Shown here piece after piece: positions 5,791 through 33,844 of a stretch of DNA of 40,214 bases (within the stretch, counting starts at the first letter, position 1; each line of letters opens with the position of its first letter). Under the pieces are notes generated by a model that did not search any database, was not told where the DNA came from, and saw only the letters and a program-made list of their open reading frames with translations. A program made the translations under genes and the position numbers. The stretch is from an uncultured delta proteobacterium. GTDB taxonomy: Bacteria > Desulfobacterota > RBG-13-43-22. The stretch covers positions 1-40,214 of the forward strand of contig CAWDKY010000041.1 of assembly GCA_963802945.1 (NCBI GenBank), written 5' to 3'.

Positions 5791-7395
5791 TCATTCCAGG
5801 ATTGCTCCTTTGGCTGCGGAGCTGACATATTTGATATACCGCTGCATAAAACCTGGGGGCACGTCTTTTTTTATAGGTTTAAATCCCCGAAGGCGTCGCC
5901 TGATTTCTTCATCGGAAAGTCTCACCTCGATTTTTCGATTAGGGATGTCGATTTCTATCTGGTCCCCGTTTTGCAGTGCAGCAATGGGCCCTCCCACATA
6001 AGCCTCCGGTGAGATATGCCCCACACACGGCCCCGAAGTGGCGCCGGAAAAACGTCCGTCGGTAATCAGGGCCACTTGCTTCAATCCTGAGGTTATAATA
6101 GCCATGGTAACCGCCAACGTTTCCGGCATACCCGGTCCCCCTTTGGGTCCCTCATAGCGAATGACGATCACGTCTCCTTCTTTGATTTCTTTCTCACGAA
6201 AGGCCTTCAGGGCATCGGCCTCTGAGTCCATCACCCGCGCCTGACCGGTAAATTGTCCGCATCTCCGGATCCACGGCCGATTGCTTGATCACGGCACCAT
6301 CCGGGGCCAAGTTTCCAAAAAGAATCACCGTGCCGCCTTCGGGCAGAAAGGGTTTGTCCCTGGGGGGAATAATGGTTTCATCCATGACCTGTGACGGTCT
6401 TTACCACTTCTTTAAACGTTTGCCCGGTGACCGTCATAGCCTCCAGGTGAAGATCGTCAGCCATTACCTTCATAACGGCCGGGATCCCTCCGGCTGCATA
6501 AAGATCCAGGATTTCATGGGGCCCGCTGGGGGTGATGGACAAAAGCGTAGGGATTTTTCGATTGAGTTCGTTGAATCTGGACAGGGGCAGGGTCAGACCC
6601 AGTTCGTGGGCAATGGCCGGCAAATGAAGGGTCGAATTGGTCGAACCGCCTATGGCCAGGTCCATGATGACTGCATTCTCGATGGCCTTGGCAGTCAGGA
6701 TCTTCCTGGCCGAAAGCCCTTCTTCGACCATCTGAACAATCCGTTTTGCCGGACTGACGGGCAAAAAGCAACTTGTCGGTATGAAAGCCGGGGACATTGG
6801 CTGAACCGGGGATCGTCAATCCCAAGACTTCGGCCATACATTGAAAGGTGTTGGCCGTTCCCATCAGATCACAGGCCCCGCAGGAGGCTATATTTCCACT
6901 GCCAGGTCGTTTAGGTCCGATCAGCCGTCTCTGCCAGATGCTGGGTCCGCCGGTCAAAAAGATGGTGGGGAGGTCCAGCCGGGCGGCGGCCATGATCATC
7001 CCCGGGATGATCTTATCGCAACTGGCGATCATGACCATCCCGTCAAAAAGCATACTGCGGACATGAGTCTCGACTATATCGGCGATCAGCTCCCGCTGGG
7101 GCAAAATATATCGCATACCTTCATGACCTTCCGTCATCCCATCACAGGGGGCCGGGACATTGAACTCAAAAGGAATGCCGCCGGCAGCATGGACCCCGTT
7201 CTTGACTTTTTCGGCCAGGAGGCCAAGGTGCATGTGTCCGGGGTGCAGCTCCGTATGGGAATTGACCACGGCAATTAAGGGCTTTTCTCTGAGCTCTTCG
7301 ATGTCGGTCCCTGTGCCCCTGACCATGGTTTGTCGAATACGATTGATCGGAAAATCCTTATCATCCAGCAGCGGCATACTCTTCGGTTTTTTCAT
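5791..7395 (-). CDS. ilvD: Dihydroxy-acid dehydratase (IlvD/Edd family), split by three +1 frameshifts (about 6745, 6392, 6256)
   Basis: [60 protein letters not shown] spread over four ORF pieces; RBS AAGGAGG before ATG 7395. Confidence 0.85.
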
Positions 7396-7572
7396 GGCCA
7401 ATCCTCCTTAAGACCTTTTTTATCGTTCGGAGAACGATTATAAATAATTCTTTGTCTTGTTGAATCTAACTGTAAAAACATTTTTCAACTTATAAACGGG
7501 AGTGTTATTCGGTCGTCCCTTAAAACCCCAAAGGCTGAGCGAGTAAATTATTAATCTTTGAATAGGGAAGAT

Positions 7573-13824: not shown

Positions 13825-14836
13825 TTAACAAATCCTGGGGAGTTGTTCGCCGGTCAACATATCAATCAGTCGTTTCCCGCCGATAAGGGTTTTCATGACC
13901 ACCTTTCCGGGATTTTCCGCCTTCACTTCTCCGATCAGGGCAGCCTCCTGTCCGTAGGGGTTCTTTTTCATGGCGGCCAGGACGACTTCGGCCTGGGCTT
14001 GCGGCAGAATGGCGATTAATTTTCCTTCATTGGCAATATAAAGTGGATCCAGTCCCAGGATTTCCGAAGCGGCCAGGACACTCGACCTGATCGGGTATGG
14101 ACTCTTCCCAAAGCTCGATCCCGACAGAGGATTGTCCGGCGATTTCATTTAAGGTAGTGGCCAGCCCTCCACGGGTGGGATCGCGCAGCACATGAATTTG
14201 GGAACCGGTCTTTAACATCTCCTGAACCAATTGATTTAAAGGGGCCGCATCGCTTTTCAAGGGAGAATCAAAAGCCAGTCCTTCTCTCTTGGAAAGGATG
14301 GTCATCCCGTGATCTCCGATCGTACCGCTGATCAAAACGGCATCTCCCGGTTCGGCATTCTGCCCGGCGATGCGGATGCCTTCAGGAATAAGGCCGATCC
14401 CGGAGGTATTGATGAAGATCTTGTCAGCTGCACCCTTGGGAACCACCTTGGTATCGCCGGTAACCACTTGGACTCCGGCTTCCTTGGCTGCCCTTTCCAT
14501 GGAAAGAATGATCTGATCCAGATCTTTGATCGGAAATCCTTCTTCGATGATGAAACCGACGCTTAGAAAATAAGGACGAGCCCCTCTCATAGCCAGATCA
14601 TTGACCGTGCCGCAAACAGCCAGAGAGCCGATGTCACCACCTGGGAAAAAAATCGGGTCCACCACATAACTGTCGGTGGTAAAGGCCAGCCTGGCACCGC
14701 TCAATTCAAAAACAGCGCTGTCATTCATTTCATTTAAGAAAGGGTTTTGAAACCGGGGAACAAAAACCTTTTCAATCAATTCATGGGAGGCCCGGCCTCC
14801 ACTGCCGTGATCCAGGGTGATTTTATCAAAAGACAT
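13825..14836 (-). CDS. hypE: Hydrogenase maturation protein HypE (+1 frameshift about 14094)
   Basis: HGSGG, TTDSYVV.P.FFPGGDIG, GDTKVV, RDPTRGG; C-terminal GEQLPRIC in the shifted frame. Confidence 0.92.
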
Positions 14837-16646: not shown

Positions 16647-18923
16647 TTATTTTTTTTGATTTATATAATGGGCCGCTACGGCCTGGCCCAGGGCAATCCC
16701 TCCGTCATTGCTGGGAATCAAGGCCTTGCTGTAAACTTGAAATCCTTCTTTTTGAAGTTTTTCTTCCATACCGGCCAGGAGGGTTCGGTTTTGAAAGACC
16801 CCACCGCCCATGACCACCTTTTCAAGGCCTGATTCATCCCTGATCTTTTTACAAACCTGAGTCAAGACTTCCAACAAGGTCAGATGAAATCTTCGGCTGA
16901 TGGATCCCGCAGATTTGTTTTTCAAAATATCCTGGACTACCCCCTGAATGATGGGTTGAAGTCTTATTTGAAACACTCTTTTCTCTTCGATTATTTCCAA
17001 GGGATATGGCGCATCCGCTTCTTTTCCCTGAAGCATTTCCAATTCCATAGCTGCCTGGCCTTCATAGGCCACGAAATCCCTCAAGCCGATCAAAGCCGCC
17101 ACACCGTCAAAGAGCCTCCCGCAACTGGAAGTGAGGGGGGAATTAATCCCTTGCTTGATCATCTTGAGGATGATTTCTATTTTTGATTTATCTTGTCTTT
17201 GTAGAAACGGCAAAGGCAGCTCCCATATCCCCTCTCCATAGGCCAAATATAAATAACTGACGGCCATACGCCAGGGTTCTTTGATGGCCTTGCTTCCGCC
17301 GGGCATGGGCAGATAGGCGAAATGACCTTTTCGTTCAAAGGAACATAGGTCCCCGACCAAAATCTCACCGCCCCAGATCCGGCCGTCAAGGCCATAACCG
17401 GTGCCGTCCAAAGAAAGACCGATCACCTTTTCCTGAAGCCCGTGTTCGGCCATACCACCCACGATGTGAGCAAAATGATGCTGAATGCCGATCAAGCGCA
17501 GGCCTTGCTGTTCCAGGGCATAGCGGGTGCTCAGATAATCAGGATGCAGATCATAGGCAATGATCTCCGGCTCGATTTGGAGAATCTGCTTTAGATGGTT
17601 TATCGTTAATTTAAAAAAGTTTAAGGTCTCTAAGTTTTCAAGGTCGCCGATGTGTTGACTTAAAAAGGCCCTATTATCCTTGGTCAGGCAGATGGTATTT
17701 TTAAGTTCCGCCCCGCAAGCCAGGATGGGGGATACTGATTCTCTTAGGAAGATCGGCACCGGCACAAATCCCCTGGATCGCCTTATCTGACGTGTCCGAT
17801 TGGCAACCCTCTGGATAATGGAATCGTCGCTGCGCAGATAGATATCACGATTGTGGACCAGAAAAAAATCGGCAATCCCTTCTAAACGGCGGAAGGCCTC
17901 GTCATTATCTAAGCAAATCGGTTCCTCCGAGAGGTTCCCGCTGGTCATGACCAGGGCAATAAAATCATAATCCATTAAAAGCTGGTGAACAGGCGTATAG
18001 GGGAGCATGACGCCGAAATATTGATTGCCCGGGGCCACTCCAGAGGCAATCGAATTGGGGAGTTTCTTGGGAAGCAAAACAATGGGACGCTCCTTGGATA
18101 AAAGAATTTCTGCTTCCTCGTTCCCGATAAAGGCATAGGCAGAAACTTGTTCCAGATCCCTGGACATCAATGCCAAAGGTTTTTCTTCCCGGTGCTTCCG
18201 GGTCCTTAAACGCATCACCGCCTCTTCCTGGGTGGCATCGACGGCCAGATGAAATCCCCCCAAGCCTTTGATGGCTACGATGCAGCCTTCTTTGAGAAAC
18301 CGGGCCGTTTCCCGGATCGGTGAAGCATGATTGATGAATTGCCCCTGACTGTCATGTAAAGAAACCTGGGGGCCGCATTTCCAGCAGGCATTAGGCTGGG
18401 CGTGAAACCGCCGGCTCATAGGAGAATGGTATTCCGCGGCACAGTCCGGGCACATGATAAAAGGGGCCATGGTGGTCTTGTCCCGGTCGTAGGGTATATC
18501 TTTAATAATCGTGTAGCGGGGTCCGCAATTCGTACAATTGATAAAGGGATATTGAAAACGTCGATCCCCCGGATCCCTGAGTTCCCTGAGGCAATCGGGA
18601 CAAGTGGCTATATCCGGAGAAATAAGCGCTGATCGTTCTTCTTGGACAATGCTTTGACGGATGGTGAATTCCCGGTCATGGACCAACGGTAGCGATTCAA
18701 CCCGGAGGTCAATAATTCGGGCCAGCGGCGGCGGGTTTTTTTGTACGGCCTTCAAAAAATCCTCAAGGACTTCAGCCTCCCCTTCTATTTCCAATTCCAC
18801 ACCCTGAGAGGTATTGGTTACATAGCCGGATAGATTCCAGCTTGTGGCCTGCCGGTAGATAAAAGGACGGAATCCAACCCCTTGAACGATCCCCTGTATG
18901 GAAACTCGATATCGTTTTTTCAT
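16647..18923 (-). CDS. hypF: Carbamoyltransferase HypF
   Basis: Acylphosphatase GIVQGVGFRP, zinc fingers CPDC..CTNCGPR and CPDC..C.KCGP, QHHFAH, DGTGYG, SSCGRLFD, NDGGIALGQ. Confidence 0.97.
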   Translation of the reverse strand: MKKRYRVSIQGIVQGVGFRPFIYRQATSWNLSGYVTNTSQGVELEIEGEAEVLEDFLKAVQKNPPPLARIIDLRVESLPLVHDREFTIRQSIVQEERSALISPDIATCPDCLRELRDPGDRRFQYPFINCTNCGPRYTIIKDIPYDRDKTTMAPFIMCPDCAAEYHSPMSRRFHAQPNACWKCGPQVSLHDSQGQFINHASPIRETARFLKEGCIVAIKGLGGFHLAVDATQEEAVMRLRTRKHREEKPLALMSRDLEQVSAYAFIGNEEAEILLSKERPIVLLPKKLPNSIASGVAPGNQYFGVMLPYTPVHQLLMDYDFIALVMTSGNLSEEPICLDNDEAFRRLEGIADFFLVHNRDIYLRSDDSIIQRVANRTRQIRRSRGFVPVPIFLRESVSPILACGAELKNTICLTKDNRAFLSQHIGDLENLETLNFFKLTINHLKQILQIEPEIIAYDLHPDYLSTRYALEQQGLRLIGIQHHFAHIVGGMAEHGLQEKVIGLSLDGTGYGLDGRIWGGEILVGDLCSFERKGHFAYLPMPGGSKAIKEPWRMAVSYLYLAYGEGIWELPLPFLQRQDKSKIEIILKMIKQGINSPLTSSCGRLFDGVAALIGLRDFVAYEGQAAMELEMLQGKEADAPYPLEIIEEKRVFQIRLQPIIQGVVQDILKNKSAGSISRRFHLTLLEVLTQVCKKIRDESGLEKVVMGGGVFQNRTLLAGMEEKLQKEGFQVYSKALIPSNDGGIALGQAVAAHYINQKK

Positions 18924-18974
18924 AAGTTAATATGAAAACAACCACAAACTAAGTTGATAGCTTGTTTGTTTATT

Positions 18975-19218
18975 GTCATGCCGGACCCCGTATCAAGTAC
19001 GGGGCAAGCCCGATCCGGCATCCAGGAAGCTTGATGCTTATATAACCTGGATTCCGGCTTTCGAGACTGTGTCGCAATTATATTTTTGTCATTCCGTGCA
19101 AGCGAAGCGCGACACGGAATCCAGTATTTTCATTAAGTTCTGGATGCCGGCTTTCGCCGGCATGACGGCTTTGATGGCGCTGTCCGCTATTACGACACAG
19201 CCTCTCCGCCGGAATGAC
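18975..19218. repeat. Palindromic repeat doublet interrupted by a MITE
   Basis: GTCATGCCGG...CCGGCATCCAG then CTGGATTCCGGCT-TTC-[insert]-TCC-GCCGGAATGAC. Confidence 0.75.
19063..19204. mobile_element. 142-bp MITE, copy 2
   Basis: Matches 4227-4368 apart from two substitutions seen by eye; flanks TTC/TCC. Confidence 0.85.
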
Positions 19219-19413
19219 AATTCAATCCCAACCAAAGTAATTTTTTCATCCTTCGTAATGCCCCCGAACTCCCTTCTTCCTAAAAAAGGCTCAAAAATCC
19301 AGTGGACTTTTGGCCTCTTTAATCGTGACCTTCTTCACCGTATGGATGCAGATCATTGCTGTCCGCACATTCTTACTCCTAGTCTAACAATAAAACATTA
19401 GGGAATAGAAATG

Positions 19414-19542
19414 ATTTGTCAAGACAATATTTACCATTTATAATAGGTTACAAAGTGTCTGAGAGGGTTGGCAAACCATAACTCATCTCAAACAGAATAA
19501 TGATCAGGGTTGCCTTCCCCAATTTAGATTTTAAATGGAGTT
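19414..19542 (+). promoter_or_regulatory. Repeated cassette-leader element with a near-consensus promoter (attI part missing)
   Basis: Close copy of 25821-25950; TTGTCA (19416)-N17-TATAAT (19439). Confidence 0.75.
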
Positions 19543-19547
19543 GTTGC

Positions 19548-20366
19548 ATGAATATAAATTTAGGTGGTATTCAAGAAACTCTATTAATACCATTATGGAG
19601 TCGTGCAAAATTCAGTAAGGAAAATAACCCTATACTTGTTGATTCAAGAGCAGTAGATATCGTTAAAAAAATCCCATATAATTTTAGTAAAATAGATAAA
19701 AATTTTCCTTATTTTCTTCATTTCCAGAATTTAGCCAGAACAAAGATGCTAGATACTACCATTAAAGAATTTTTATCAAATCACCCAAAAGCAACAATTG
19801 TAAACTTAGGAGCAGGATTGGATACTACGTTTTATCGAGTCGATAATAGATTATTAAATTGGTATGATATTGATCTTCCAGATGTTATTGAAATTCGGAA
19901 CAAACTTATCCCTGGAGCTGACCGCCTGCATTATATTGAGGGCTCGATATTTGAAATGAAATGGGTAAAAAATATTGCAAACGCTAAAGATGGAATTCTA
20001 TTTATAAGTAATGGCGTTCTAGAATATTTTCAGAAAAGTGTGGTTAAAAAATTCTTATCTGATATGGCAGATAATTTTCCAGAAAGCGAAATCGTATTTA
20101 ATACCATACGCAGGAATATAATAATTTCTTATTTTAACAGAAGAATGATGAAACGATTAGGGATGAAATCAGCAACTACTAAATGGGGAATTAAAGATCC
20201 AGAGAAAATAAAACGATGGGATAAACGCATTGTTGTCTTAGCAAGTTATCCACTTTTTTCAAAAATAAAAATACAAAGAAATTGGGATACAAATCATGTA
20301 AAAGCAATGAACCGTTTTGATAAATGGAAGGCAGTAAACATAGTGCATTTGAAATTCATGAAATAA
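19548..20366 (+). CDS. Class I SAM-dependent methyltransferase (leucine carboxyl methyltransferase/TcmP-like)
   Basis: ETLLIPLWSRA, VNLGAGLDT.FYR, WYDIDLPDVI; strongly AT-rich, followed by a half attC. Confidence 0.87.
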   Translation: MNINLGGIQETLLIPLWSRAKFSKENNPILVDSRAVDIVKKIPYNFSKIDKNFPYFLHFQNLARTKMLDTTIKEFLSNHPKATIVNLGAGLDTTFYRVDNRLLNWYDIDLPDVIEIRNKLIPGADRLHYIEGSIFEMKWVKNIANAKDGILFISNGVLEYFQKSVVKKFLSDMADNFPESEIVFNTIRRNIIISYFNRRMMKRLGMKSATTKWGIKDPEKIKRWDKRIVVLASYPLFSKIKIQRNWDTNHVKAMNRFDKWKAVNIVHLKFMK

Positions 20367-20373
20367 TTAAATT

Positions 20374-20400
20374 TTCTAACAATAAAATCGAGCCTGATGC
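20374..20400 (+). mobile_element. Degenerate attC, left half only
   Basis: TTCTAACAATAAAATCGAGCC just after the stop codon (RYYYAAC-like box plus L''-like box); no R' found. Confidence 0.4.
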
Positions 20401-20441
20401 CGCTGGCTATTTTCCATTTCGAAAAATTCAACGGTGGACCC

Positions 20442-21107
20442 GTGGATGACCATGTAAGAAGGACCATCGCTACCTATGATATCATTGCACCTCATTACGG
20501 GGTAACGGCGACCTCTGAACTGCGGGCCTGGGAAGAGTCATCAATGCGGTTGTTCGCGGGCTATCTTTCTGGGACTAAAGTCCTCGTTCCTGGATGTGGA
20601 GATGGACGAGATTCAAGATATTTGTCTTCTCTTGGGCTCGATGTATTATCGTTCGATCTATCCGACGGAATGCTCCAAGAAGCACGTAAGCTGGATGGGC
20701 ACGCACGATATGTGAAGCTCGACCTCCGTGAAGTTAGCTCTCTTGCGCAGACCTTCGATGGCGTTTATGCCAGCGGGTGCTTGTACCATTTGTCTCGAAG
20801 GGAATTTGAAGCCTTTATCCGGGACACTTATGTCATGCTGGAGTTAAATGGTGTCTTCTACCTCAACATGAAAATCGGCATAGGTGAAGAGTATAGCGCG
20901 GTTCCAGGTGACCGGTATCCCGGAGGTGAACAAGCGCGACAGCTTTTGACGGGAGACCGCTACTACGTGTATTATCAGCGGAAGGAACTGGCCCATTACT
21001 TGCGAAGCTATCAGCTCTTGCACGAACGCGATATCCAGTACGCAGAGGAAGCCGTCGAATTATGGGTGCGTAAGAGTCCCGAGGCGAACCAAGGTAGGCA
21101 GGTATAG
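20442..21107 (+). CDS. Class I SAM-dependent methyltransferase
   Basis: TIATYD, VLVPGCGDGRD, FDLSDGML, FDGVYASGCLYHL; start uncertain. Confidence 0.85.
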   Translation: MDDHVRRTIATYDIIAPHYGVTATSELRAWEESSMRLFAGYLSGTKVLVPGCGDGRDSRYLSSLGLDVLSFDLSDGMLQEARKLDGHARYVKLDLREVSSLAQTFDGVYASGCLYHLSRREFEAFIRDTYVMLELNGVFYLNMKIGIGEEYSAVPGDRYPGGEQARQLLTGDRYYVYYQRKELAHYLRSYQLLHERDIQYAEEAVELWVRKSPEANQGRQV

Positions 21108-21269
21108 GTAGACTCAAACGATGAAATACGTCATCCGAGAACTAATATGTGCTGGTCTACCGACGATGTTATCTCTCTGTGTTCAACCGTACGTAGACGC
21201 AATAAGAGTCATGGACTTCGTCCAGCCATGGGTTCAGCCTTGTTTTTAAAGTTGAGAGCAAAAAAAACT

Positions 21270-21336
21270 GTGGAACGAGTCGCTGGGGCCAATCGGCAAC
21301 AAAGAGCGCTGCCTCTGGCTCAGCTTTTTGTTGAAC
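21270..21336 (+). mobile_element. Degenerate attC site
   Basis: ...GAAC GAGTC GCTGGGGCCA ... TGGCTCAGC TTTTT GTTGAAC; the L boxes pair, R'' is imperfect. Confidence 0.6.
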
Positions 21337-21399
21337 GACAAGAATGAAAACTAATCGCCATAGGAATGCGCCTAATGAGCCGTAAGCACTTTCAAATCG

Positions 21400-21467
21400 G
21401 GGTTGCCTTCCCCAAGACTTAAAAATGTAGTGTTATCCAGAAAAACTTTAGAATAACTTGTTAGGCC
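21400..21467 (+). mobile_element. Truncated leader plus attI-like site, copy 2
   Basis: GGGTTGCCTTCCCCAA...TTATCCAGAAAAACTTTAGAATAACTTG|TTAGGCC; identity with the 25.9 kb copy ends immediately after GTTA. Confidence 0.75.
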
Positions 21468-21483
21468 GTCTAAGGAAGATCGG

Positions 21484-22158
21484 ATGATAGGAAAAATTTT
21501 AACCACGGGGTTTGAGAACGCATTATGTGCCGATTGGCGCATTGTCCGCACTCACCTCGATGCTGTCTGTATTCTGATCGAACGTAATTCCGATTGTACT
21601 CCTCCCCTTATCGCACAGCGTTTACTTGTTTCAGGGGAGGACCACAGACATCCGCGTCATCCGGGTTTCGACTTGATTGCCATTGGACGTGCATGCTGGC
21701 GCCGCCTCAGTTGCGGAACCCATGAAGGTGGCAGCACAATTGAACAGCAGATCGTCCGTGTGTTAACGGGACGGTACGAACGCACCGTCACCCGCAAACT
21801 TCGTGAGATTGCACTCGCAGCCCTCGTTGCTAGACGCTACCCCAAACATCGACTTCCTGCGGCATATCTGTGGATTGGATACTACGGGTGGCGAATGAAC
21901 GGGTACCTACAAGCCTGTCGGCGGCTTGGGATGCCACCACAGTCCCTTAGCTCAGAGGAAGCGGCTATGCTTGTCGCTCGTTTAAAGTACCCTCAGCCTA
22001 GGGAAGCGTCGACCCACAGGGTATTACAAATCGAGCGACGGGCGAAGCACCTTCGTGCGCTTTATCAACGACATTTATTCGACGGAACATATAGGCATCT
22101 TAATGGCCCGACCCTTTACAAACGATCCACGTCTATCGAGCCACTTCCCCAGTCCTGA
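21484..22158 (+). CDS. Transglycosylase (GT51)-domain protein without a membrane anchor (cassette gene 1)
   Basis: GEDHRHPRHPGFD (EDxxFxxHxG-like), GGSTIEQQ, RKLRE motifs; no hydrophobic N-terminus. Confidence 0.75.
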   Translation: MIGKILTTGFENALCADWRIVRTHLDAVCILIERNSDCTPPLIAQRLLVSGEDHRHPRHPGFDLIAIGRACWRRLSCGTHEGGSTIEQQIVRVLTGRYERTVTRKLREIALAALVARRYPKHRLPAAYLWIGYYGWRMNGYLQACRRLGMPPQSLSSEEAAMLVARLKYPQPREASTHRVLQIERRAKHLRALYQRHLFDGTYRHLNGPTLYKRSTSIEPLPQS

Positions 22159-22777
22159 CGAACTGGAGAAGACATTGGCTAAAGCGTCACGCACCTCGCG
22201 CGAGGTTGTCGCACGGTTGTGGCTGAGCGAAGGTCTTCCATCTGCCTTTCTCACTTCTCCGGCAGTTTATGAAGACCTTCGCGGTTGGCTCGCCTCTCGA
22301 CTGAACGTTCATCCCAAAGAGATAACCCTCATTGGGAGCGCTAGAATCGGTTATTCGCTTTCACCGCCACCCGAGTTCGGGCGCCCCTTTGCTGTAAGAT
22401 CCGATCTCGATTTATGTATCGTATCCCGCGACCTTTTCCAGCGCGTAACCGCATCATTCGATGAATTTTCGGCTGACTACAGATCCGGGGCTGTGACCCC
22501 GAGAAGCCAACATGAACGGCACCTATGGGATGAGAATCTTATTTTTGGTGAACGCAACATCCCTCAAGGGTTCTTCGACCCTAATAAAATACCAAATTTT
22601 GATCGCTACCCTGTCGCGCAACAGGTAAGCCAGTCAATGTGGATGCTGGTGAAGAGACTTGAAGTCATACTCAATGCACCACAGGTTAGACGAGCGTCGA
22701 TTCGCGTCTACCGCGATTGGCAAAGTTTTATTGATAAGGTGTCATTTAATCTCATGGTTGCGTTGAAGAAGGCCTAA
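22103..22777 (+). CDS. Pol-beta-superfamily nucleotidyltransferase-like protein (cassette gene 2)
   Basis: hGS motif LIGSARIGYS ... SDLDLCIVS; the TAA stop lies within attC R''. Confidence 0.7.
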   Translation: MARPFTNDPRLSSHFPSPDELEKTLAKASRTSREVVARLWLSEGLPSAFLTSPAVYEDLRGWLASRLNVHPKEITLIGSARIGYSLSPPPEFGRPFAVRSDLDLCIVSRDLFQRVTASFDEFSADYRSGAVTPRSQHERHLWDENLIFGERNIPQGFFDPNKIPNFDRYPVAQQVSQSMWMLVKRLEVILNAPQVRRASIRVYRDWQSFIDKVSFNLMVALKKA

Positions 22778-22830
22778 CAATTCACTGGTGCGGAAGCAAA
22801 AAAGGAGCACCGCACAGCTCCGCATTGAGC
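22771..22830 (+). mobile_element. attC site (R' mutated to ATT)
   Basis: R'' GGCCTAAC is the exact complement of cassette start GTTAGGCC (21460); CTG.TGCGG/CCGCACAG stem; R' ATTGAGC. Confidence 0.8.
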
Positions 22831-22861
22831 TGCAACACATAAAGATGAAGGACTGGAGCAA

Positions 22862-23626
22862 ATGAACGGGCAGATCAGAGAGAATCCAGACTATGGCAAT
22901 TGGACTCCAAAACTAATAATTTATGTTCCTCTCGCAATAGCGCTCCTGTTCCTGGCATCGAGTCTCATGTGGTCTTTCCTGCTCATTCCGGCCGCCTTCT
23001 TCTTGCTGGTCGCTGCCTTTCTATTGTACGTTCGCTTCAAGCTTTCTCCTAAAACAGGAAATGTGCAAGAATCCATTTGGAAGCTCGTATTAGATCATTT
23101 GGATTGGAATGGAGAAGGCAGGGCCTTGGACATAGGTTGCGGGAACGGTGCCCTGGCCATCAAGCTGGCTCAGAGGCACAACAGGGCACACGTCCTCGGA
23201 ATAGACTATTGGGGAAAGAGGTGGGATTACTCGATGAAGGTCTGTGAACGCAACGCAGCGATTGAGGGAGTCAGTGACCGCGTGACGTTCCAGAAAGGCA
23301 GTGCCGCCTCATTGCCATTCGCTGATGAGTACTTCGATGCAGCGGTGAGCAATTTCGTCTTCCACGAGGTAGGCGGTGTCAAAGACAAGCGTGAAGTTAT
23401 TCGTGAAGCATTGCGGGTTCTTAAGAAAGGTGGCAAGTTCGCTTTTCAAGACGAATTTCTCATCAAGAAGATGTATGGTGATCCAGACGCGTTACTCACC
23501 ACTGTCAAGGGTTGGGGAATAGCCAAAGTGGAGTTCATTCAAACCAGAAATTTGCCTTTTATCCCACGCCTGTTGAAAGCGCCATTCATTTTGGGGACTA
23601 TGGGGATGATACGGGGAGAGAAATGA
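22862..23626 (+). CDS. Membrane-anchored class I SAM-dependent methyltransferase (cassette)
   Basis: Two N-terminal hydrophobic helices, LDIGCGNG, LPFADEYFDAAVSN, EALRVLKKGG; RBS GGAG. Confidence 0.88.
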   Translation: MNGQIRENPDYGNWTPKLIIYVPLAIALLFLASSLMWSFLLIPAAFFLLVAAFLLYVRFKLSPKTGNVQESIWKLVLDHLDWNGEGRALDIGCGNGALAIKLAQRHNRAHVLGIDYWGKRWDYSMKVCERNAAIEGVSDRVTFQKGSAASLPFADEYFDAAVSNFVFHEVGGVKDKREVIREALRVLKKGGKFAFQDEFLIKKMYGDPDALLTTVKGWGIAKVEFIQTRNLPFIPRLLKAPFILGTMGMIRGEK

Positions 23627-23642
23627 GCAGCACACACAATAA

Positions 23643-23700
23643 CAGCCCAACGAATCGTTCCACCGGATCGCTTAAGCTCCCAGTGAACTCGTTATTAGGC
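23643..23700 (+). mobile_element. attC site (R' mutated to ATT)
   Basis: R'' CAGCCCAAC versus cassette start TTGAGCTG (one mismatch); GTTCCAC/GTGAAC L boxes; R' ATTAGGC. Confidence 0.8.
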
Positions 23701-23791
23701 GCATATTATTAAACCAAAACATTCTTACATATACGTTATTCCCATATGAAAACGCTTATAAAGGAGGATTTATTCAGTATATACATGTTTT

Positions 23792-23855
23792 AACGCAGAT
23801 CTTCTAACTCCTTAATCTGTGCGCTTTGGTCTTTTTGTCATCTTTCATTTTTAAA
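23792..23855 (-). pseudogene. Remnant 5' end of a PAS signalling gene (MKDDKKTK...KELEDLR)
   Basis: 23824-23855 is identical over 32 nt to 13375-13406. Confidence 0.7.
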
Positions 23856-24007
23856 TAGGCATTAGCAGGGAACTAATGCTTTGCGTGGCTACAATCGGGG
23901 TTTCGGCTGGCGCAAGCAGCTGCACTTCAGAGCGCCGTTGCCCATCATCGGTGCTTCGCCGCCGCGCCTCGGAACCTAGTCATGCCCGGGGAACTCGGAG
24001 TGAGGTC

Positions 24008-25486
24008 CTACCGAACGACCTCGATGGCGGGAAGCCGATACGCTTTGGGATCGGTCAGCTCTTCGATCATCGCTGGTCCTGGCGCGTAAGCGCGCAGGAT
24101 CAGATAAAAAGGACCGGTCGGCGCAGGCAGCCAGTTTTGCACGCGAGCCTGTCCCGGGTTCGCGGCCTGAATATAAATCGTCGTCGTTCCATCGGCGTTG
24201 GTGGTTAGCGTGTTATCGCTGCCCAAAGAATAGCGATCGATCGAGTTCGGTACGGTGTAATTGTTCGTCGTATCGTACATCGTCACCGACCAGAAGCCTG
24301 GTTCGACAAACGGCGGCAGCTGGTGAAACATGATCGTGTAGCGATTGGCGCCACTCAAGAGAATACCGCGGCTGTCCGTGCCACCGTAGTAGTACGTGGC
24401 CTCCGTGGGGGTATTTAGCGTTATCCCTTCGCGCCCGGCGACGGCACGCGTTCTATAGTCGGTTCCGAAGTTGCCGACGGTCGGCGGCGACACGAACCAG
24501 CCACCCTCGAAACGGCCGGCCGGCAACTTGCGCAGCAGCGGGCCGATCGCGGCGGCAGCGCGATTCATGGCGGCAAGGGTGATCGGGTCCACCACAGAGG
24601 GGCGCCACTGCTTTCCCAGTTCGATACCGAGAGGTTTGAACATCGGAAGCAACGCGGCGATTTGACTCGCAGGCGGCGGATTTTCATTCATGGCAGCGGA
24701 GAAAATCTCCCAAAACTGCGCGGGATCCGCGAAATTCAAGGCGCTGGCCGATTGACGCTTGTCCGTAACGACGGGAACGGCGTAGTTGTACGCCGGAGTC
24801 GCCGGCGGCTGTTGTCCGAGGAACTGCGCAAGACCTTGTGTTGTAATGCCGTTGAGCACGGCTCGTGAAGTCGCGAGATCGCCTTGATTCTTCAAGTGGA
24901 CGCGCGGCTGAATCAGCACCCATCGCGTCGGAGAATCGATTCGCTGTATACCGTCCGGCAGCGTGCCCTTCCATCCGGGACCGACCAAGGCGAACTTGCC
25001 GCCCTTGTAGCCGTTGACAGCGCCGGCCGGATACGCGAACGCGTTCGTCCACATGTCGCAGACCTCGACCATGTAGTAAAGGCCCTTCGAATCCGGAAGC
25101 GTCAGAATGATCGGCTGCGGCCCGAGATCGAGAAAGCCGAATCCGTAGATCGTGTTCACGTTGGGTGTTACGTAGCCCGACTCTTCTGACAGTTGCGGTG
25201 TCGAAATGTTCGGCATGCGCCAAATATCATTGGGCGCCGCCTTCGGAGAGGGCCCGAACGTATCGTTGTAACGCAGGTTATACATACTGACGAGCGGGGC
25301 GCCATAGGTTGCCGCGTCGATCGCGAGCGCATAGGACCAGTCGGAAAGAGCCTTTACTTGTGAAGGCGGAAGTGAAACCCTCGCCGTAGGCGCGGCGGCC
25401 ACGCCCTGCGCTCCCGCTGCGGTGCCAAAGGCAATAAAAAACCCCAGTAGACCCGCCGCCAGCAATTCTCTCTTTAAGATCTTCAT
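24008..25486 (-). CDS. Exported DUF1254/DUF1214-domain protein
   Basis: Signal peptide, TPNVNTIY, DMWTN, GFWSVTMYD, NWLPAP, LRAY.P; visibly GC-rich; RBS GGAGG. Confidence 0.85.
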   Translation of the reverse strand: MKILKRELLAAGLLGFFIAFGTAAGAQGVAAAPTARVSLPPSQVKALSDWSYALAIDAATYGAPLVSMYNLRYNDTFGPSPKAAPNDIWRMPNISTPQLSEESGYVTPNVNTIYGFGFLDLGPQPIILTLPDSKGLYYMVEVCDMWTNAFAYPAGAVNGYKGGKFALVGPGWKGTLPDGIQRIDSPTRWVLIQPRVHLKNQGDLATSRAVLNGITTQGLAQFLGQQPPATPAYNYAVPVVTDKRQSASALNFADPAQFWEIFSAAMNENPPPASQIAALLPMFKPLGIELGKQWRPSVVDPITLAAMNRAAAAIGPLLRKLPAGRFEGGWFVSPPTVGNFGTDYRTRAVAGREGITLNTPTEATYYYGGTDSRGILLSGANRYTIMFHQLPPFVEPGFWSVTMYDTTNNYTVPNSIDRYSLGSDNTLTTNADGTTTIYIQAANPGQARVQNWLPAPTGPFYLILRAYAPGPAMIEELTDPKAYRLPAIEVVR

Positions 25487-25820
25487 CGTTCCCTCCTTCT
25501 CTAGTGCCGTCGCAGGGCTGCGATGCACGTTATATTATAGCTTGGAAGACGATTTCTTGTCAAAAGCTCCTCCGGAATCTTGGACTCACCCAAAATCAAT
25601 TTAATGTTTCGTGACGCCTGTTTCAAGCAGGCATAAGGGTTTAATACCAAATTTCTTCTAAGAGTGGAGTATAAGATAAGGATAAGAATGGATCAAGGAG
25701 AAAAAGAGGCTAACCAGGTGACCCTACAGGATTTAGGGCCGGGAACCTGTAGAAATAAAAAGGAAAATTCCCTTTAATGCGAAATCAAAAAATTAAATCC
25801 GTCCCTTTAAATCTAAAATA

Positions 25821-25950
25821 ATTTGTCAAGATAATACTTATCATTTATAATGGGTTACAAAGTTTCTAAGAGGGTTGGCAAACCATAGGTCATCTAAAAC
25901 AGAATAATGATCAGGGTTGCCTTCCCCAATTTAGACTTTAAAATGTAGTT
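25821..25950 (+). promoter_or_regulatory. Repeated cassette-leader element with promoter(s)
   Basis: TTGTCA (25823)-N17-TATAAT (25846); second candidate TTGCCT (25917)-N16-TAAAAT (25939). Confidence 0.75.
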
Positions 25951-25986
25951 TTATCCAGAAAAACTTTAGAATAACTTGTTATGTGT
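25951..25986 (+). mobile_element. attI-like site, copy 3
   Basis: TTATCCAGAAAAACTTTAGAATAACTTG|TTATGTGT; GTTATGTGT is the exact complement of R'' ACACATAAC at 27245. Confidence 0.75.
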
Positions 25987-26045
25987 AAGAGAGGAAAAGT
26001 CAGAATTCTAAAAGAACAATATAAAAAATGGTGTTTATACCTCCA

Positions 26046-26087
26046 AATTAACAGTATATGAACAATGAATATATACAAGCGTTGGCG
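26046..26087 (+). mobile_element. Short degenerate attC-like site
   Basis: AATTAAC AGTATATG ... TATATAC AAGC GTTGGCG. Confidence 0.45.
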
Positions 26088-26099
26088 GCAACTTGAGAA

Positions 26100-27143
26100 A
26101 TGAATAAATTAATATTAGCAATTAAAGAGAATTGGAAAGATCCGGTTTGGAGTAAAGTCATTGCTGCGGGTATCATTTCTGTCGCGGGGTTTATTTTGAC
26201 TACTCTTTATTCATTAATAAAATCGCTATTTACCAAAATTTCATTTGGAGATGCACTTAATGAAGTTGGGACATTTCTAAACAAGAATATAGACCTGAAA
26301 GTGTGGTTAATTATTGCTCTATCAGTCTTATATATGATTCTTGTCTTTAACCAATTCACATCACTGATTAAGAACATTTTCATTAAGCTCAAGAGTCCTC
26401 GCACTAAAACTAAAGAACCCACTGAACCAGAAGTGCCACGGGCAACAGAACACTCAACATCCTTATTTTATCAAAGAATGGCTAGTGCGTTTCCTGGCAT
26501 AAGAGAAGTAACATGGATTGAGAACCCAAAAGACGCAACAAATAGACTGGAAATTCTTTTGCAAAAACCATTGAGATTCAAATCGGATTTAGGAGAGTTT
26601 GAGTCAGACCCAATTTGGTGGTTTAGGGGAAGTAGCGCATTATATATTGAATTGTTTAAAAAGTTAGGAAGTAGAAAGATTCTAATGAATTTTGACCAAT
26701 TAAAAATAAGAAGGATTGCAGCTTATCATGATGATTCCTATTACAAAAATTTCGTTTACGTTGAGGTTGAAGGCGAGAAACAAACAGGACTTTATAATTT
26801 GACAGAAGAAGATATACAAAGGCATATAGATAAGTTTGGTTATAGCCGTGAAGAATATGGACTGATTAAGAACAAGCTTGGGTGGAAGACACCAATCCGT
26901 AGAGAAAACCATGACGATGGAGCTACGGTAATCAAGGGGAAAGTTCGTGACATAAAGAATGCAGAGCTAAGGGTCAGATATATTTCCCAATACAATTTTA
27001 TAATTGCTGCTAAAGGATCACCTTATAACTCTCGTAAATTCGATAGAAATTCAGAGAATTATCTAAACGGTATATTAAAGGGTGAAGTTGACCCAAATGA
27101 ATTTTTCGAATTCTTAAAAGGATTTCAAAAACATGAACAATAA
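26100..27143 (+). CDS. Hypothetical membrane protein (two N-terminal TM helices; cassette gene)
   Basis: 347-aa AT-rich ORF, WKDPVWSKVIAAGII hydrophobic start, bounded by GTTGGCGG and CCGCCAAC. Confidence 0.8.
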   Translation: MNKLILAIKENWKDPVWSKVIAAGIISVAGFILTTLYSLIKSLFTKISFGDALNEVGTFLNKNIDLKVWLIIALSVLYMILVFNQFTSLIKNIFIKLKSPRTKTKEPTEPEVPRATEHSTSLFYQRMASAFPGIREVTWIENPKDATNRLEILLQKPLRFKSDLGEFESDPIWWFRGSSALYIELFKKLGSRKILMNFDQLKIRRIAAYHDDSYYKNFVYVEVEGEKQTGLYNLTEEDIQRHIDKFGYSREEYGLIKNKLGWKTPIRRENHDDGATVIKGKVRDIKNAELRVRYISQYNFIIAAKGSPYNSRKFDRNSENYLNGILKGEVDPNEFFEFLKGFQKHEQ

Positions 27144-27149
27144 AAACTA

Positions 27150-27231
27150 CCGCCAACAATCTATAAGCGTAATGCGGGCGGACAGTGAATCGCTCCGAAA
27201 CCCGCACTAGGCTTATACTTGGCCGTTGAGA
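27150..27231 (+). mobile_element. attC site (inner cassette)
   Basis: R'' CCGCCAAC, TATAAGC/GCTTATA and GCGGG/CCCGC stems, R' GTTGAGA. Confidence 0.8.
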
Positions 27232-32333: not shown

Positions 32334-33844
32334 TCAATGAACCGAACAGGATATACACGGATCATAGGATCGCACCAACATCGAGCAAAGCAACTCGAGC
32401 TGCTTATCCGTAAGCCCTTGGGGTGCAAATTGTTTAGCCAGTTCCTTCATATCAAAATGGATATTGGCATTATTTTGGGTCGTCGGGATAATACAATTGG
32501 CGCTTAGAATATGACCCGTATCATCATAGGTATAGTCATGATAGAGGATGCCGCGCGGTACTTCCACAGCCCCGACACCCCTGCCGGCCTTGGGCACAAC
32601 AGGCACCATGATGTTTTTAAAATCGTCTTCGAGTAAGGTTTCAATATAACGAATCGACTCAAAAACCACATGAACGCATTTCAATCAATTGGGCCACATT
32701 GTTCATAAAGGGATTATGCGAAACGGGTGCCAGTCCTAAAAACTCGGCCACCTTCTTGGCCTCGGGATGAAGTAGGGAGTAGTTGTTGTTAAAACGGGCC
32801 AGGGCGCCGACCGCCATGGATTCGCGGGAAAGCTTGCACCATTTTGAAGTATTATGTCGGATCGAGATACTCGTTGGTCATCTTTAGATATTCATCTTCC
32901 CTTTTGACCACACCGTCCGTAGAAATCAGATCGCCGCCGATAAAGGGATACTCATCCACACCCTTGAGGGAGACAAATTCCGTCTGGCGGACAAAATCAG
33001 GGATATTAAAGGTCTTAAACAACTCCGCCGTCATCTTCAGGTCGCCTACCGAGCGTTTCAATTCGTCGCGCAGAATGGCCAGGGCCTTTTTATCCGGGGC
33101 CATGGCCACACCGCCGACCTGTAATGAGACCGGATGGGTCGTTCGACCGGCCACCACATCGCAAATCCGGTTGCCCAGACTTTTCAGACGCGCGGCCATA
33201 TTGACAATCTCCGGTTTTTTATCCAGGAACGGCTTCACCGTTGGAAGCCCGATTAAGTCCGGCGCCGAATTTTCGGCAATACCAAACAGGGCCTCCTCAA
33301 TCTCTTCGCGCAACTCCGGGGCCAGCATCGATTTATCCCGTCGAGCCCCTCGTGCGGAAGGCTTGATGAACCGTTCTTGGGCCAGGGCCTCATCATAGAG
33401 ATAATCAGCCAGATTCGTGAGGCGGCGGGAAAGATCATAAACTTTAACTTCTTTTTCCAAGAGGTGGATTGCACTGGGCAAATTGAAAAAATCGGGTGCG
33501 GCTAGAAAAAAAAGGTGCAGGACATGGCTCTGGAGTGTCTCACCGTGCTTGGCCAGCATGCGTAATTTCCTGGCCGTCTCAGGTATGGTGACCCCCATGG
33601 CATTTTCGCTGGCCCGGATGCTGGCTAAGCAGTGACCTATGGAGCATATGCCGCAGATTCTGGCCGTGAGTATGCCGGCCTCGGTAAAGTGCTTTCCCTT
33701 GAGCATGGCCTCAAAGTATCTCGGGGTCTCGACGACATCCCAGCGCGCCTCTTCGACCTTACCGTCTTCAATACGAACCTTGATATTGCCATGCCCTTCA
33801 ACTCTAGTCAGATGATGAACGTCTACATTCAGTTGAACCTTCAT
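32334..33844 (-). CDS. Group 3b [NiFe]-hydrogenase alpha (large) subunit; two +1 frameshifts (about 32857 and 32680)
   Basis: TRVEGHG, L1 ARICGICSIGH, middle frame VGALARFNNN...NPFMNNVAQLIE, EVPRGILYH, L2 SYDPCISCSVH*. Confidence 0.88.

Follow-up and report, generated by a model that had tools for sequence, protein, structure and literature searches.

What kind of unit is formed when a peptidoglycan glycosyltransferase-like gene overlaps a nucleotidyltransferase-like gene and both are mobile together? This question is raised by a locus in an uncultured delta proteobacterium (contig CAWDKY010000041.1, assembly GCA_963802945.1), of which 40,214 nucleotides (nt) were analysed, this whole stretch being referred to as the window. 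Here, a same-strand pair of open reading frames (ORFs) forms a two-gene unit within positions 21460-22778. A preliminary description of this DNA proposed an integron cassette in first position behind an attI-like site, carrying two overlapping genes for a soluble GT51 transglycosylase-like protein and a Pol-beta-type nucleotidyltransferase (NTase), and considered it a candidate defence or toxin system. The analysis below shows a conserved and nearly obligate pairing of the two genes, whichever of them is taken as the starting point. With slightly less than an even chance of being right, the pair is read as an autonomous mobile toxin-antitoxin (TA) or abortive-infection module, in which the NTase would restrain a cytoplasmic, lipid II-directed GT51 effector. 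The unit comprises the following features:

21460..21467, plus strand: left boundary GTTAGGCC, resembling an integron core site (GTTRRRY), 17 nt upstream of the gene 1 start
21472..21478, plus strand: Shine-Dalgarno-like AAGGAAG, 5 nt 5' of the gene 1 ATG, read from the sequence
21484..22158, plus strand: gene 1, 224 amino acids (aa), GT51 (peptidoglycan glycosyltransferase-like), without a transmembrane (TM) anchor, catalytic motifs intact
22103..22158, plus strand: frame overlap of gene 1 and gene 2, 56 nt
22103..22777, plus strand: gene 2, 224 aa, divergent minimal-nucleotidyltransferase-like, with GS at residues 78-79, SDLD at 100-103 and an invariant D159
22771..22778, plus strand: right boundary GGCCTAAC, R''-like (RYYYAAC), overlapping the TAA stop of gene 2

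Both ORFs are real, lie on the same strand and overlap as first described, and a comparable overlap is found in the nearest relatives of the window pair (alignment gap -52). The overlap suggests translational coupling. While the ORF list places the start of gene 2 at GTG 22055, ATG 22103 fits the N-termini of 34 homologs (M-x-x-P-F...).

A GT51 protein and its nucleotidyltransferase-like partner

The assignment of gene 1 to GT51 held up in both sequence and structure comparisons. The protein matches PF00912 (Transgly) with an E-value of 6.1e-28 and 97.9 bits (gathering cut-off 27), residues 44-186 being aligned to profile positions 26-170 of 178. In an alignment of 35 GT51-like relatives, three blocks are invariant, namely E52 D53 R55 H59 G61 D63, E81 G82 S84 T85 I86 Q88 Q89, and R104 K105 E108, which we take to be GT51 motifs 1-3, with E52 and E108 as both catalytic glutamates. 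Such strict conservation across 35 relatives argues for a role in substrate binding or catalysis rather than as a scaffold. The AlphaFold2 model of gene 1 (predicted local distance difference test, pLDDT, 81.7) has a disordered C-terminal tail from around residue 209, and a Foldseek search with it recovered the GT51 fold, with MtgA of S. aureus (3vmt) as the best match (E 2.5e-5, probability 1.00, TM score ~0.55), followed at probability 1.00 by the Aquifex peptidoglycan glycosyltransferase (3nb6/2oqo), PBP2 and PBP1b. In addition, relatives of gene 1 share family-specific features, including an N-terminal helix pair, an invariant W18 and a C-terminal H197...Y203 motif.

In normal GT51 enzymes, a membrane anchor places the domain outside the cytoplasm. 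Gene 1 has neither a TM segment nor a signal peptide, and at 224 aa it is too short for an added transpeptidase domain, as the preliminary description had stated. None of the 35 GT51-like sequences displays an N-terminal hydrophobic 19-mer at a Kyte-Doolittle value of at least 1.6; this value is reached in five of the 35, always in one internal helix past the RK..E motif. The gene 1 product would thus be soluble or cytoplasmic, a location suggested by the missing signal peptide together with the natural fusion to an NTP-using domain described below. An N-terminal amphipathic membrane helix was also considered and rejected: the mean hydrophobic moment of the first 18 residues is 0.27, compared with 0.28 in other windows of the protein, and since the N-terminus does not exceed these, no claim of peripheral membrane binding is made. 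Elsewhere in the host genome, GT51 matches at four loci reach higher scores (137-229 bits) than gene 1 does (98), indicating that gene 1 is an extra, divergent copy. None of the NCBIfam equivalog cut-offs is reached (PBP_1c, 85.5 bits against 494; mono_pep_trsgly, 59.1 against 182.65), and relatives go by the name 'biosynthetic peptidoglycan transglycosylase' at NCBI, with 'penicillin-binding protein' also in use in public records.

The Pol-beta superfamily of NTases is characterised by the signature hG[GS] ... [DE]h[DE]. In gene 2, the residues G78 S79 R81 G83 S85 ... S100 D101 D103, plus D159, are invariant in an alignment of 34 relatives, confirming the signature that had been read from the single sequence. 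This GS...SDLD pattern is of the minimal-NTase type, its spacing lengthened by an insertion of ~12 residues. The AlphaFold2 model of gene 2 (pLDDT 93.9) was compared with 48,161 chains using VIA-align, and the top three were all minimal nucleotidyltransferases (MNTs), with weak scores: HI0073 (1no5_B; Z 5.5, root-mean-square deviation 3.6, 93 aligned residues), which was the sole chain at Z >= 5, then 1wot (Z 4.8) and a chain of a HEPN-MNT complex (8xeh_E, Z 4.5). A re-ranked Foldseek list consisted mostly of Pol-beta-fold NTases (AadA, CdnD, CutA, Pol beta, lambda and mu, poly(A) polymerase and terminal uridylyltransferases), all at Z <= 3.8. A lead from the Atlas pointed to a cluster in which 11% of the members carry PF01909. 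An NTase fold is likely for gene 2, which is probably an active minimal NTase.

The family of gene 2 is large and lacks a name. At least 168 word-indexed homologs are all unnamed or 'hypothetical', and HMMER found 1233 members at E <= 1e-3 and 283 at E <= 1e-30 among 1.84 billion representatives. No match to gene 2 was present among NCBIfam or PADLOC models, nor in a phage collection searched by tblastn, while a search of PDB sequences with the profile of the 34 relatives gave two chance-level matches (E 0.53 and 1.2).

Conservation of the pair and its genomic setting

A survey of homolog neighbourhoods had been set as a test of the pairing, and the two genes co-occurred whichever was used as the seed. 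Starting from gene 2, 22 species genomes with a relative were found; a same-strand GT51-like gene lies upstream in 21 of these, immediately adjacent in 20, and in the remaining locus (L014) gene 2 begins at base 33 of the contig, where the upstream sequence is cut off. Starting from gene 1, 80 metagenome loci were kept of 366 confirmed, several on near-duplicate contigs, so that not all loci are independent. Gene 2 follows immediately in 66 of the 68 loci with at least 300 nt downstream (gap -61 to +137 nt), and the two misses have just 316 and 338 nt of sequence remaining. Among the 12 shorter loci, the gene 2 start is visible in four, and in the other eight at most 150 nt remain. The two ORFs recur at full length, with 40-85% identity and in fixed order, in more than 100 loci. 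Across 75 pairs, the identity of one gene to its window counterpart rises and falls with that of the other (Pearson r 0.89).

The two domains are also found in one polypeptide. Single-chain fusions with GT51 first make up five of the 150 best gene 2-family representatives (P0249, P0333, P0357, P0360 and P0319); Pfam confirmed Transgly on these five of the eight long matches tested. One fusion, P0319 (634 aa), has a further C-terminal region of 180 aa without a Pfam match, and in locus L017 (233-1348) the GT51-like gene has a C-terminal extension of ~300 aa and ends 4 nt before gene 2. At the far end of the family, L113 (G145:C3, 1351-2526, minus strand) carries an AT-rich and very divergent pair of a GT51-like (207 aa) and an NTase-like (179 aa) protein, so the pairing persists at low identity.

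No third conserved gene was found beside the pair. The largest neighbour cluster covers 6 of ~100 loci and is a downstream ORF of 128-140 aa confined to one clade; other clusters reflect synteny among close Nitrospiraceae-type contigs. The clade-specific ORF, with at least 51% identity and no family, starts ~25-85 nt past gene 2; it might encode a third component peculiar to this clade, or belong to a cassette that travels along. It is located 3' of gene 2 at:

L057, 4291-4713
L064, 4326-4736
L065, 4284-4694
L070, 1977-2363
L071, 4032-4418
L074, 1309-1719

Distant relatives of gene 2 have a different partner. In L111/L112 (G005:C67, 1471-3137) and L114 (G364:C1, 1450-3083), they lie directly upstream of a GmrSD_N/DUF262 gene. 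These NTase-like proteins of 195-210 aa retain the GS...SDxD signature, and their partners of 345-348 aa match PADLOC NsnA (E 3e-38 to 3e-39) and PD-T4-2_A. The NTase stop overlaps the DUF262 start in L114, while a CHAT-domain protein precedes in G005. NTase and DUF262 may represent a second, undescribed pair, and judging from three loci (G005, G364 and G145), the gene 2 family looks like a regulator module with exchangeable partners.

According to record titles, the pair is carried by at least seven phylum-level groups, including Krumholzibacteriia, Nitrospirota, Alpha- and Betaproteobacteria, Acidobacteriota, Verrucomicrobia, Bacteroidota/Ignavibacteria and a deltaproteobacterium. Its occurrence is sporadic, with a match in one of 40 relatives of the host genome (distant, at 32% identity) and in four of 400 other genomes of the phylum. 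Cultured carriers are Pandoraea eparura LMG 31012 and Aliarcobacter cryaerophilus; in the latter, a tblastn match lies on the Campylobacterota plasmid pM830MA, where the pair follows IS21 and adjoins DUF4365, PLD-like, TIR and DUF4917 genes. Several genomes carry the pair among mobile and defence genes. For example, it is found next to a helicase with an MTES_1575 nuclease domain and an Mrr-type nuclease (L007), a Type ISP restriction enzyme and Fic (L013), HepT/MNT (L020) or an IS110 transposase (L014), and Xer-like recombinases that fall under the IntI cut-off are nearby in L001 and L022. Other loci are flanked by the housekeeping genes for DNA polymerase I, UvrB and pssA, and the link to defence islands is therefore suggestive and unquantified.

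Does the pair travel in integrons? The left boundary GTTAGGCC is the exact complement of GGCCTAAC over all 8 nt, in line with the preliminary description, yet the core 7-mer by itself occurs at chance frequency (4 copies in the window, ~3 expected). Across relatives, a perfect GTT.../...AAC inverted repeat of at least 7 nt encloses the pair in 15 of the 70 loci in which this could be assessed, compared with 2.6% of shuffled controls (~eightfold). In five metagenome contigs (L054, L056, L058, L092 and L110), R'' is followed by a typical attC ending in GTTRRRY-like bases, with hairpin folding in L054 (z -4.1) and L110 (z -2.6) and R'/R'' pairing in L056. These complete attC sites indicate that integrons do mobilise the two genes together, as a single cassette.

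In the window itself, only part of the cassette claim survived. The core-site and R'' boundaries stand, but the attC thought to extend to 22830 was not found: folding of the flanking DNA gave z -0.45 and -1.24 without R''/R' pairing, and no GTTRRRY (R') follows the window R''. There was no tyrosine recombinase among 35 window ORFs scanned and no integron integrase in the whole genome (TIGR02249, best 79.6 bits against a cut-off of 265), no attI evidence at the window pair, and no intI above cut-off near the loci of relatives. The upstream neighbours of the pair are same-strand methyltransferase genes. Without a folding attC, R', recombinase or intI, a first position behind attI is unsupported, and the simplest reading is a fossil integron cassette of which just the two 8-mers are left.

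The pair resides in a compositionally mosaic island of 30-62% GC between hypF (16647-18923) and a DUF1254/DUF1214 gene (24008-25528). The flanking methyltransferases are LCM-like (~30% GC), Methyltransf_25/11, and Methyltransf_11 with a hydrophobic N-terminus. These methyltransferase genes are located as listed first below; the remaining entries are further genes in the window that appear split and may represent frameshifts, pseudogenes or assembly errors:

19500-21107 and 22862-23626, same strand as the pair: three flanking S-adenosylmethionine-dependent methyltransferase genes
13825-14836: split hypE-like AIRS/AIRS_C, two ORFs
5791-7401: split dihydroxy-acid dehydratase, N and C parts, two ORFs
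32334-33844: split NiFe hydrogenase large subunit, N and C parts, two ORFs

Dense inverted repeats of 10-16 nt, several of them 100% complementary and ~110 nt apart, are located at 19015-19220 inside an ORF (18973-19401) without a Pfam match, which may be a repeat element and not a gene. The stretch at 25600-27200, of 31-37% GC and with an ORF of 347 aa (26100-27143) lacking a Pfam match, is probably another acquired segment, with a 60% GC gene on one side and the hydrogenase genes on the other. A scan of 21000-23000 for promoters and terminators found none exceeding shuffle expectation; its single terminator-like site is on the minus strand at 22821-22804. An Rfam scan of 18800-24200 (E <= 1) gave 0 matches.

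Possible function and alternative explanations

If the pair acts as a TA or abortive-infection module, gene 1 would be the effector, having kept its active site and lost the membrane anchor of normal GT51 enzymes. We infer its location, its substrate, the identity of the toxic partner and the mode of restraint as follows. On the cytoplasmic side, the GT51 effector would bind or polymerise lipid II, or a similar polyprenyl-diphosphate sugar, prior to flipping. With unflipped lipid II engaged in this way, the carrier lipid would be locked up and wall synthesis would cease, leading to growth arrest or lysis. The NTase encoded by gene 2 would be the regulator that holds the effector off, and two modes of restraint could be envisaged. 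MNT antitoxins nucleotidylylate HEPN toxins in type VII systems, and the NTase might likewise nucleotidylylate the GT51 effector; alternatively, it might release an inhibitory nucleotide product, as in Hailong, Clover and Panoptes. According to a review, the NTases of these three systems keep toxic effectors off through their products, and NTase active-site mutants are lethal (PMC13434031). Another publication predicts cytoplasmic immunity effectors, of a different fold, that attack unflipped lipid II (PMC12419801). The unit would formerly have been carried as an integron cassette and, having no functional attC left, would now be a fixed part of a mosaic island. The initial idea of an NTase and effector pair is thus retained with respect to both domains, the conserved pairing and the lack of a PADLOC model, but not with respect to a location in an active integron. 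It could further be speculated that the pair defines a new effector class, with GT51 redeployed intracellularly to kill or arrest the host by polymerising or sequestering unflipped lipid II, under restraint (covalent, or through an inhibitory nucleotide) by an MNT-like NTase from a family that can be swapped to other partners (DUF262), yet this broader proposal is doubtful.

Several observations weigh against a GT51 toxin restrained by an NTase. The gene order, effector and then NTase, is the reverse of that in HEPN-MNT and the same as in AbiE and MenAT, and in AbiE and MenAT the downstream NTase is the toxin. Stable domain fusions would be unusual for a classic system with a labile antitoxin and more typical of sequential enzymes. 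Moreover, gene 2 appears disrupted while the GT51 motifs are intact in three loci, by a frameshift in L022 and L102 and by a stop in L021; these are contigs from metagenomes or metagenome-assembled genomes, that of L021 containing N, and assembly errors are possible. Should the breaks be real, those cells tolerate GT51 without its partner. The N-terminus is fairly hydrophobic in some members that are distant or fused (19-residue Kyte-Doolittle value of 1.80 in P0333 and 1.34 in P0319), and hence a membrane anchor and another topology are possible in parts of the family. The predicted complex of gene 1 and gene 2, using both alignments, scored 0.00 and gave no answer either way. Finally, the NTase assignment rests on the motif and weak fold scores: no Pfam NTase matches gene 2, nor does any other Pfam model, at E up to 10, and hhalign of the 34 relatives against one MNT aligned the SDxD stretch alone, with 6% probability. 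The fold check proposed in the preliminary description had a divided outcome, with MNTs as the top three in VIA-align but nothing in Foldseek at E <= 0.001, where Pol-beta-type NTases were scattered in weak rows.

Some of these points would be explained if the roles were reversed, the NTase being a toxin that, like MenT or AbiEii, nucleotidylylates tRNA, and the GT51-like protein neutralising it or sensing lipid II or cell-wall precursors. As a sensor, GT51 might read the precursor state, e.g., when phage lysis proteins disturb lipid II. The order of partner and then NTase, as in AbiE and MenAT, and the invariant GS...DxD residues fit such an arrangement, as do the three loci where gene 1 is intact and gene 2 looks broken, since a toxin would be the first of the two to decay. 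So does the pairing of distant gene 2 relatives with ParB-DUF262 proteins, which the Menshen paper describes as sensors (PMC12065111). Yet a mere antitoxin would not require every GT51 catalytic motif to be invariant, no AbiEii/DUF1814 or MenT model in Pfam, NCBIfam or PADLOC matches gene 2, and its nearest folds are MNT antitoxin-type proteins, making the reversed roles rather improbable. The natural fusions, typical of enzymes acting sequentially on one substrate, and the catalytic residues retained in both proteins could instead reflect an envelope-precursor pathway. Here, GT51 would build or remodel a lipid-linked glycan at the inner membrane face, and the NTase-fold partner would decorate the glycan or carrier by nucleotidyl or phospho-alcohol transfer, in a LicD-like manner, thereby altering the surface (phage receptors, tolerance to wall-active antibiotics). 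Adaptive traits, such as surface changes or resistance, are frequent cargo of integron cassettes. However, no transporter, flippase or sugar-activation gene co-travels with the pair, which has no third conserved gene at all, its neighbours are defence and mobile genes and not envelope genes, and in at least seven phylum-level groups it would need to plug into very different envelopes. As weaker evidence, no LicD/fukutin-type chain is among the listed fold matches. Such a pathway is therefore considered unlikely.

An antibiotic-resistance cassette, with gene 2 as an ANT-type drug nucleotidyltransferase and gene 1 as a decoy for a moenomycin-type, GT51-binding antibiotic, is very improbable. AadA, the product of a classic integron cassette, was best among the re-ranked folds (Z 3.8, ~105 residues aligned), GT51 is the moenomycin target, and moenomycin complexes are among the PDB titles matched by gene 1. 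A Z of 3.8 is within noise, though, and the C-terminal helical domain of AadA is unmatched (model 43-220, chain 2-141). In addition, moenomycin-type drugs act outside the cytoplasm, away from these signal-less proteins, neither protein reaches an NCBIfam curated cut-off, and the contexts are defence islands and not resistance regions. That the pair is non-functional, i.e., a decayed fragment of a class A penicillin-binding protein (PBP) beside an unrelated ORF with flanking 8-mers by chance, is hardly credible. The several apparently split genes show that decay or assembly error occurs in the window, and the 7-mer core is no rarer than chance allows, but full-length ORFs in fixed order at so many loci, the co-varying identities and the fusions already contradict it, and the bracketing repeats exceed shuffles. 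A type VI secretion system effector-immunity reading was tried as well and dropped, as gene 2 has no signal peptide and no secretion genes were present among the neighbours scanned.

Relation to known systems and biological meaning

The closest parallel to the interpretation of gene 2 as a restraining NTase is found in the HEPN-MNT type VII TA systems (PDB 8xeh, 5yep and 1no5/HI0073), which are likewise mobile two-gene units with a GS...SDxD minimal NTase, provide the best fold matches of gene 2 and follow the proposed logic of an NTase restraining an enzymatic toxin. Their partner, however, is a HEPN (Rx4-6H) RNase with the MNT gene upstream, whereas here a GT51 partner is upstream of the NTase; moreover, gene 2 is about double an MNT in size, has helical insertions as well as a helical region at its N-terminus, and lacks the Pfam NTase match. 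AbiE (AbiEi/AbiEii) and MenAT share two genes with a downstream Pol-beta-fold NTase, mobility and a link to defence, but have an upstream winged helix-turn-helix protein or MenA antitoxin where the pair has an enzyme fold, and no family match connects them. Hailong (HalB/HalA), Clover (CloB/CloA) and Panoptes (mCpol/2TM effector) are two-gene NTase operons as well, according to the review mentioned above (PMC13434031). Yet they have an ion channel, a dNTPase and a TM protein as effectors, neither sequence comparison nor PADLOC links the pair to any of them, and CD-NTase and Cas10-palm chains reach Z 2.5-3.5 against the gene 2 model.

On the side of gene 1, MtgA and the GT51 domain of class A PBPs have the same fold and every catalytic motif, while gene 1 differs in lacking the TM anchor, in scoring under the equivalog cut-offs, in being an accessory copy and in its linkage to an NTase. 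Lipocone superfamily (Min-Wnt) effectors and the TelC toxin also have lipid II as a target, including prior to flipping, but they are of an unrelated fold, cleave phosphoesters instead of transferring or binding glycosyl groups, and have other partner genes (PMC12419801). Two-gene TA cassettes of chromosomal integrons have the same kind of boundaries as the pair shows in several metagenome contigs, namely GTTRRRY and a complementary R'' with an attC that folds; the window pair differs in having no intI, attI or folding attC and in encoding larger proteins (224 aa each), both predicted enzymes.

The statement that the pair is not a recognised named system agrees with the searches made. PADLOC-DB 2.0 (2023) yielded 0 families at E <= 1 for either protein, for two fused forms or for the distant pair, and no description of a GT51 and NTase pair was found in the open-access literature, although supplementary tables of integron-cassette and defence-system surveys may list the family. 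The NTase and effector architecture is known, while the effector fold and its inferred target would be new. Given the lack of an anchor, the sub-cut-off scores, the accessory copy, the NTase linkage and the family-specific motifs, hundreds of public sequences probably carry a misleading annotation where they are called 'biosynthetic peptidoglycan transglycosylase' or penicillin-binding protein. With cultured hosts and a size of 1.3 kb, the pair makes the proposed restraint of a GT51 effector directly testable. If true, evolution would have turned a core cell-wall synthase fold against the very cell that makes it, lipid II and the pool of carrier lipid would join the targets of bacterial immunity and addiction modules, and minimal nucleotidyltransferases would gain a new class of partner.

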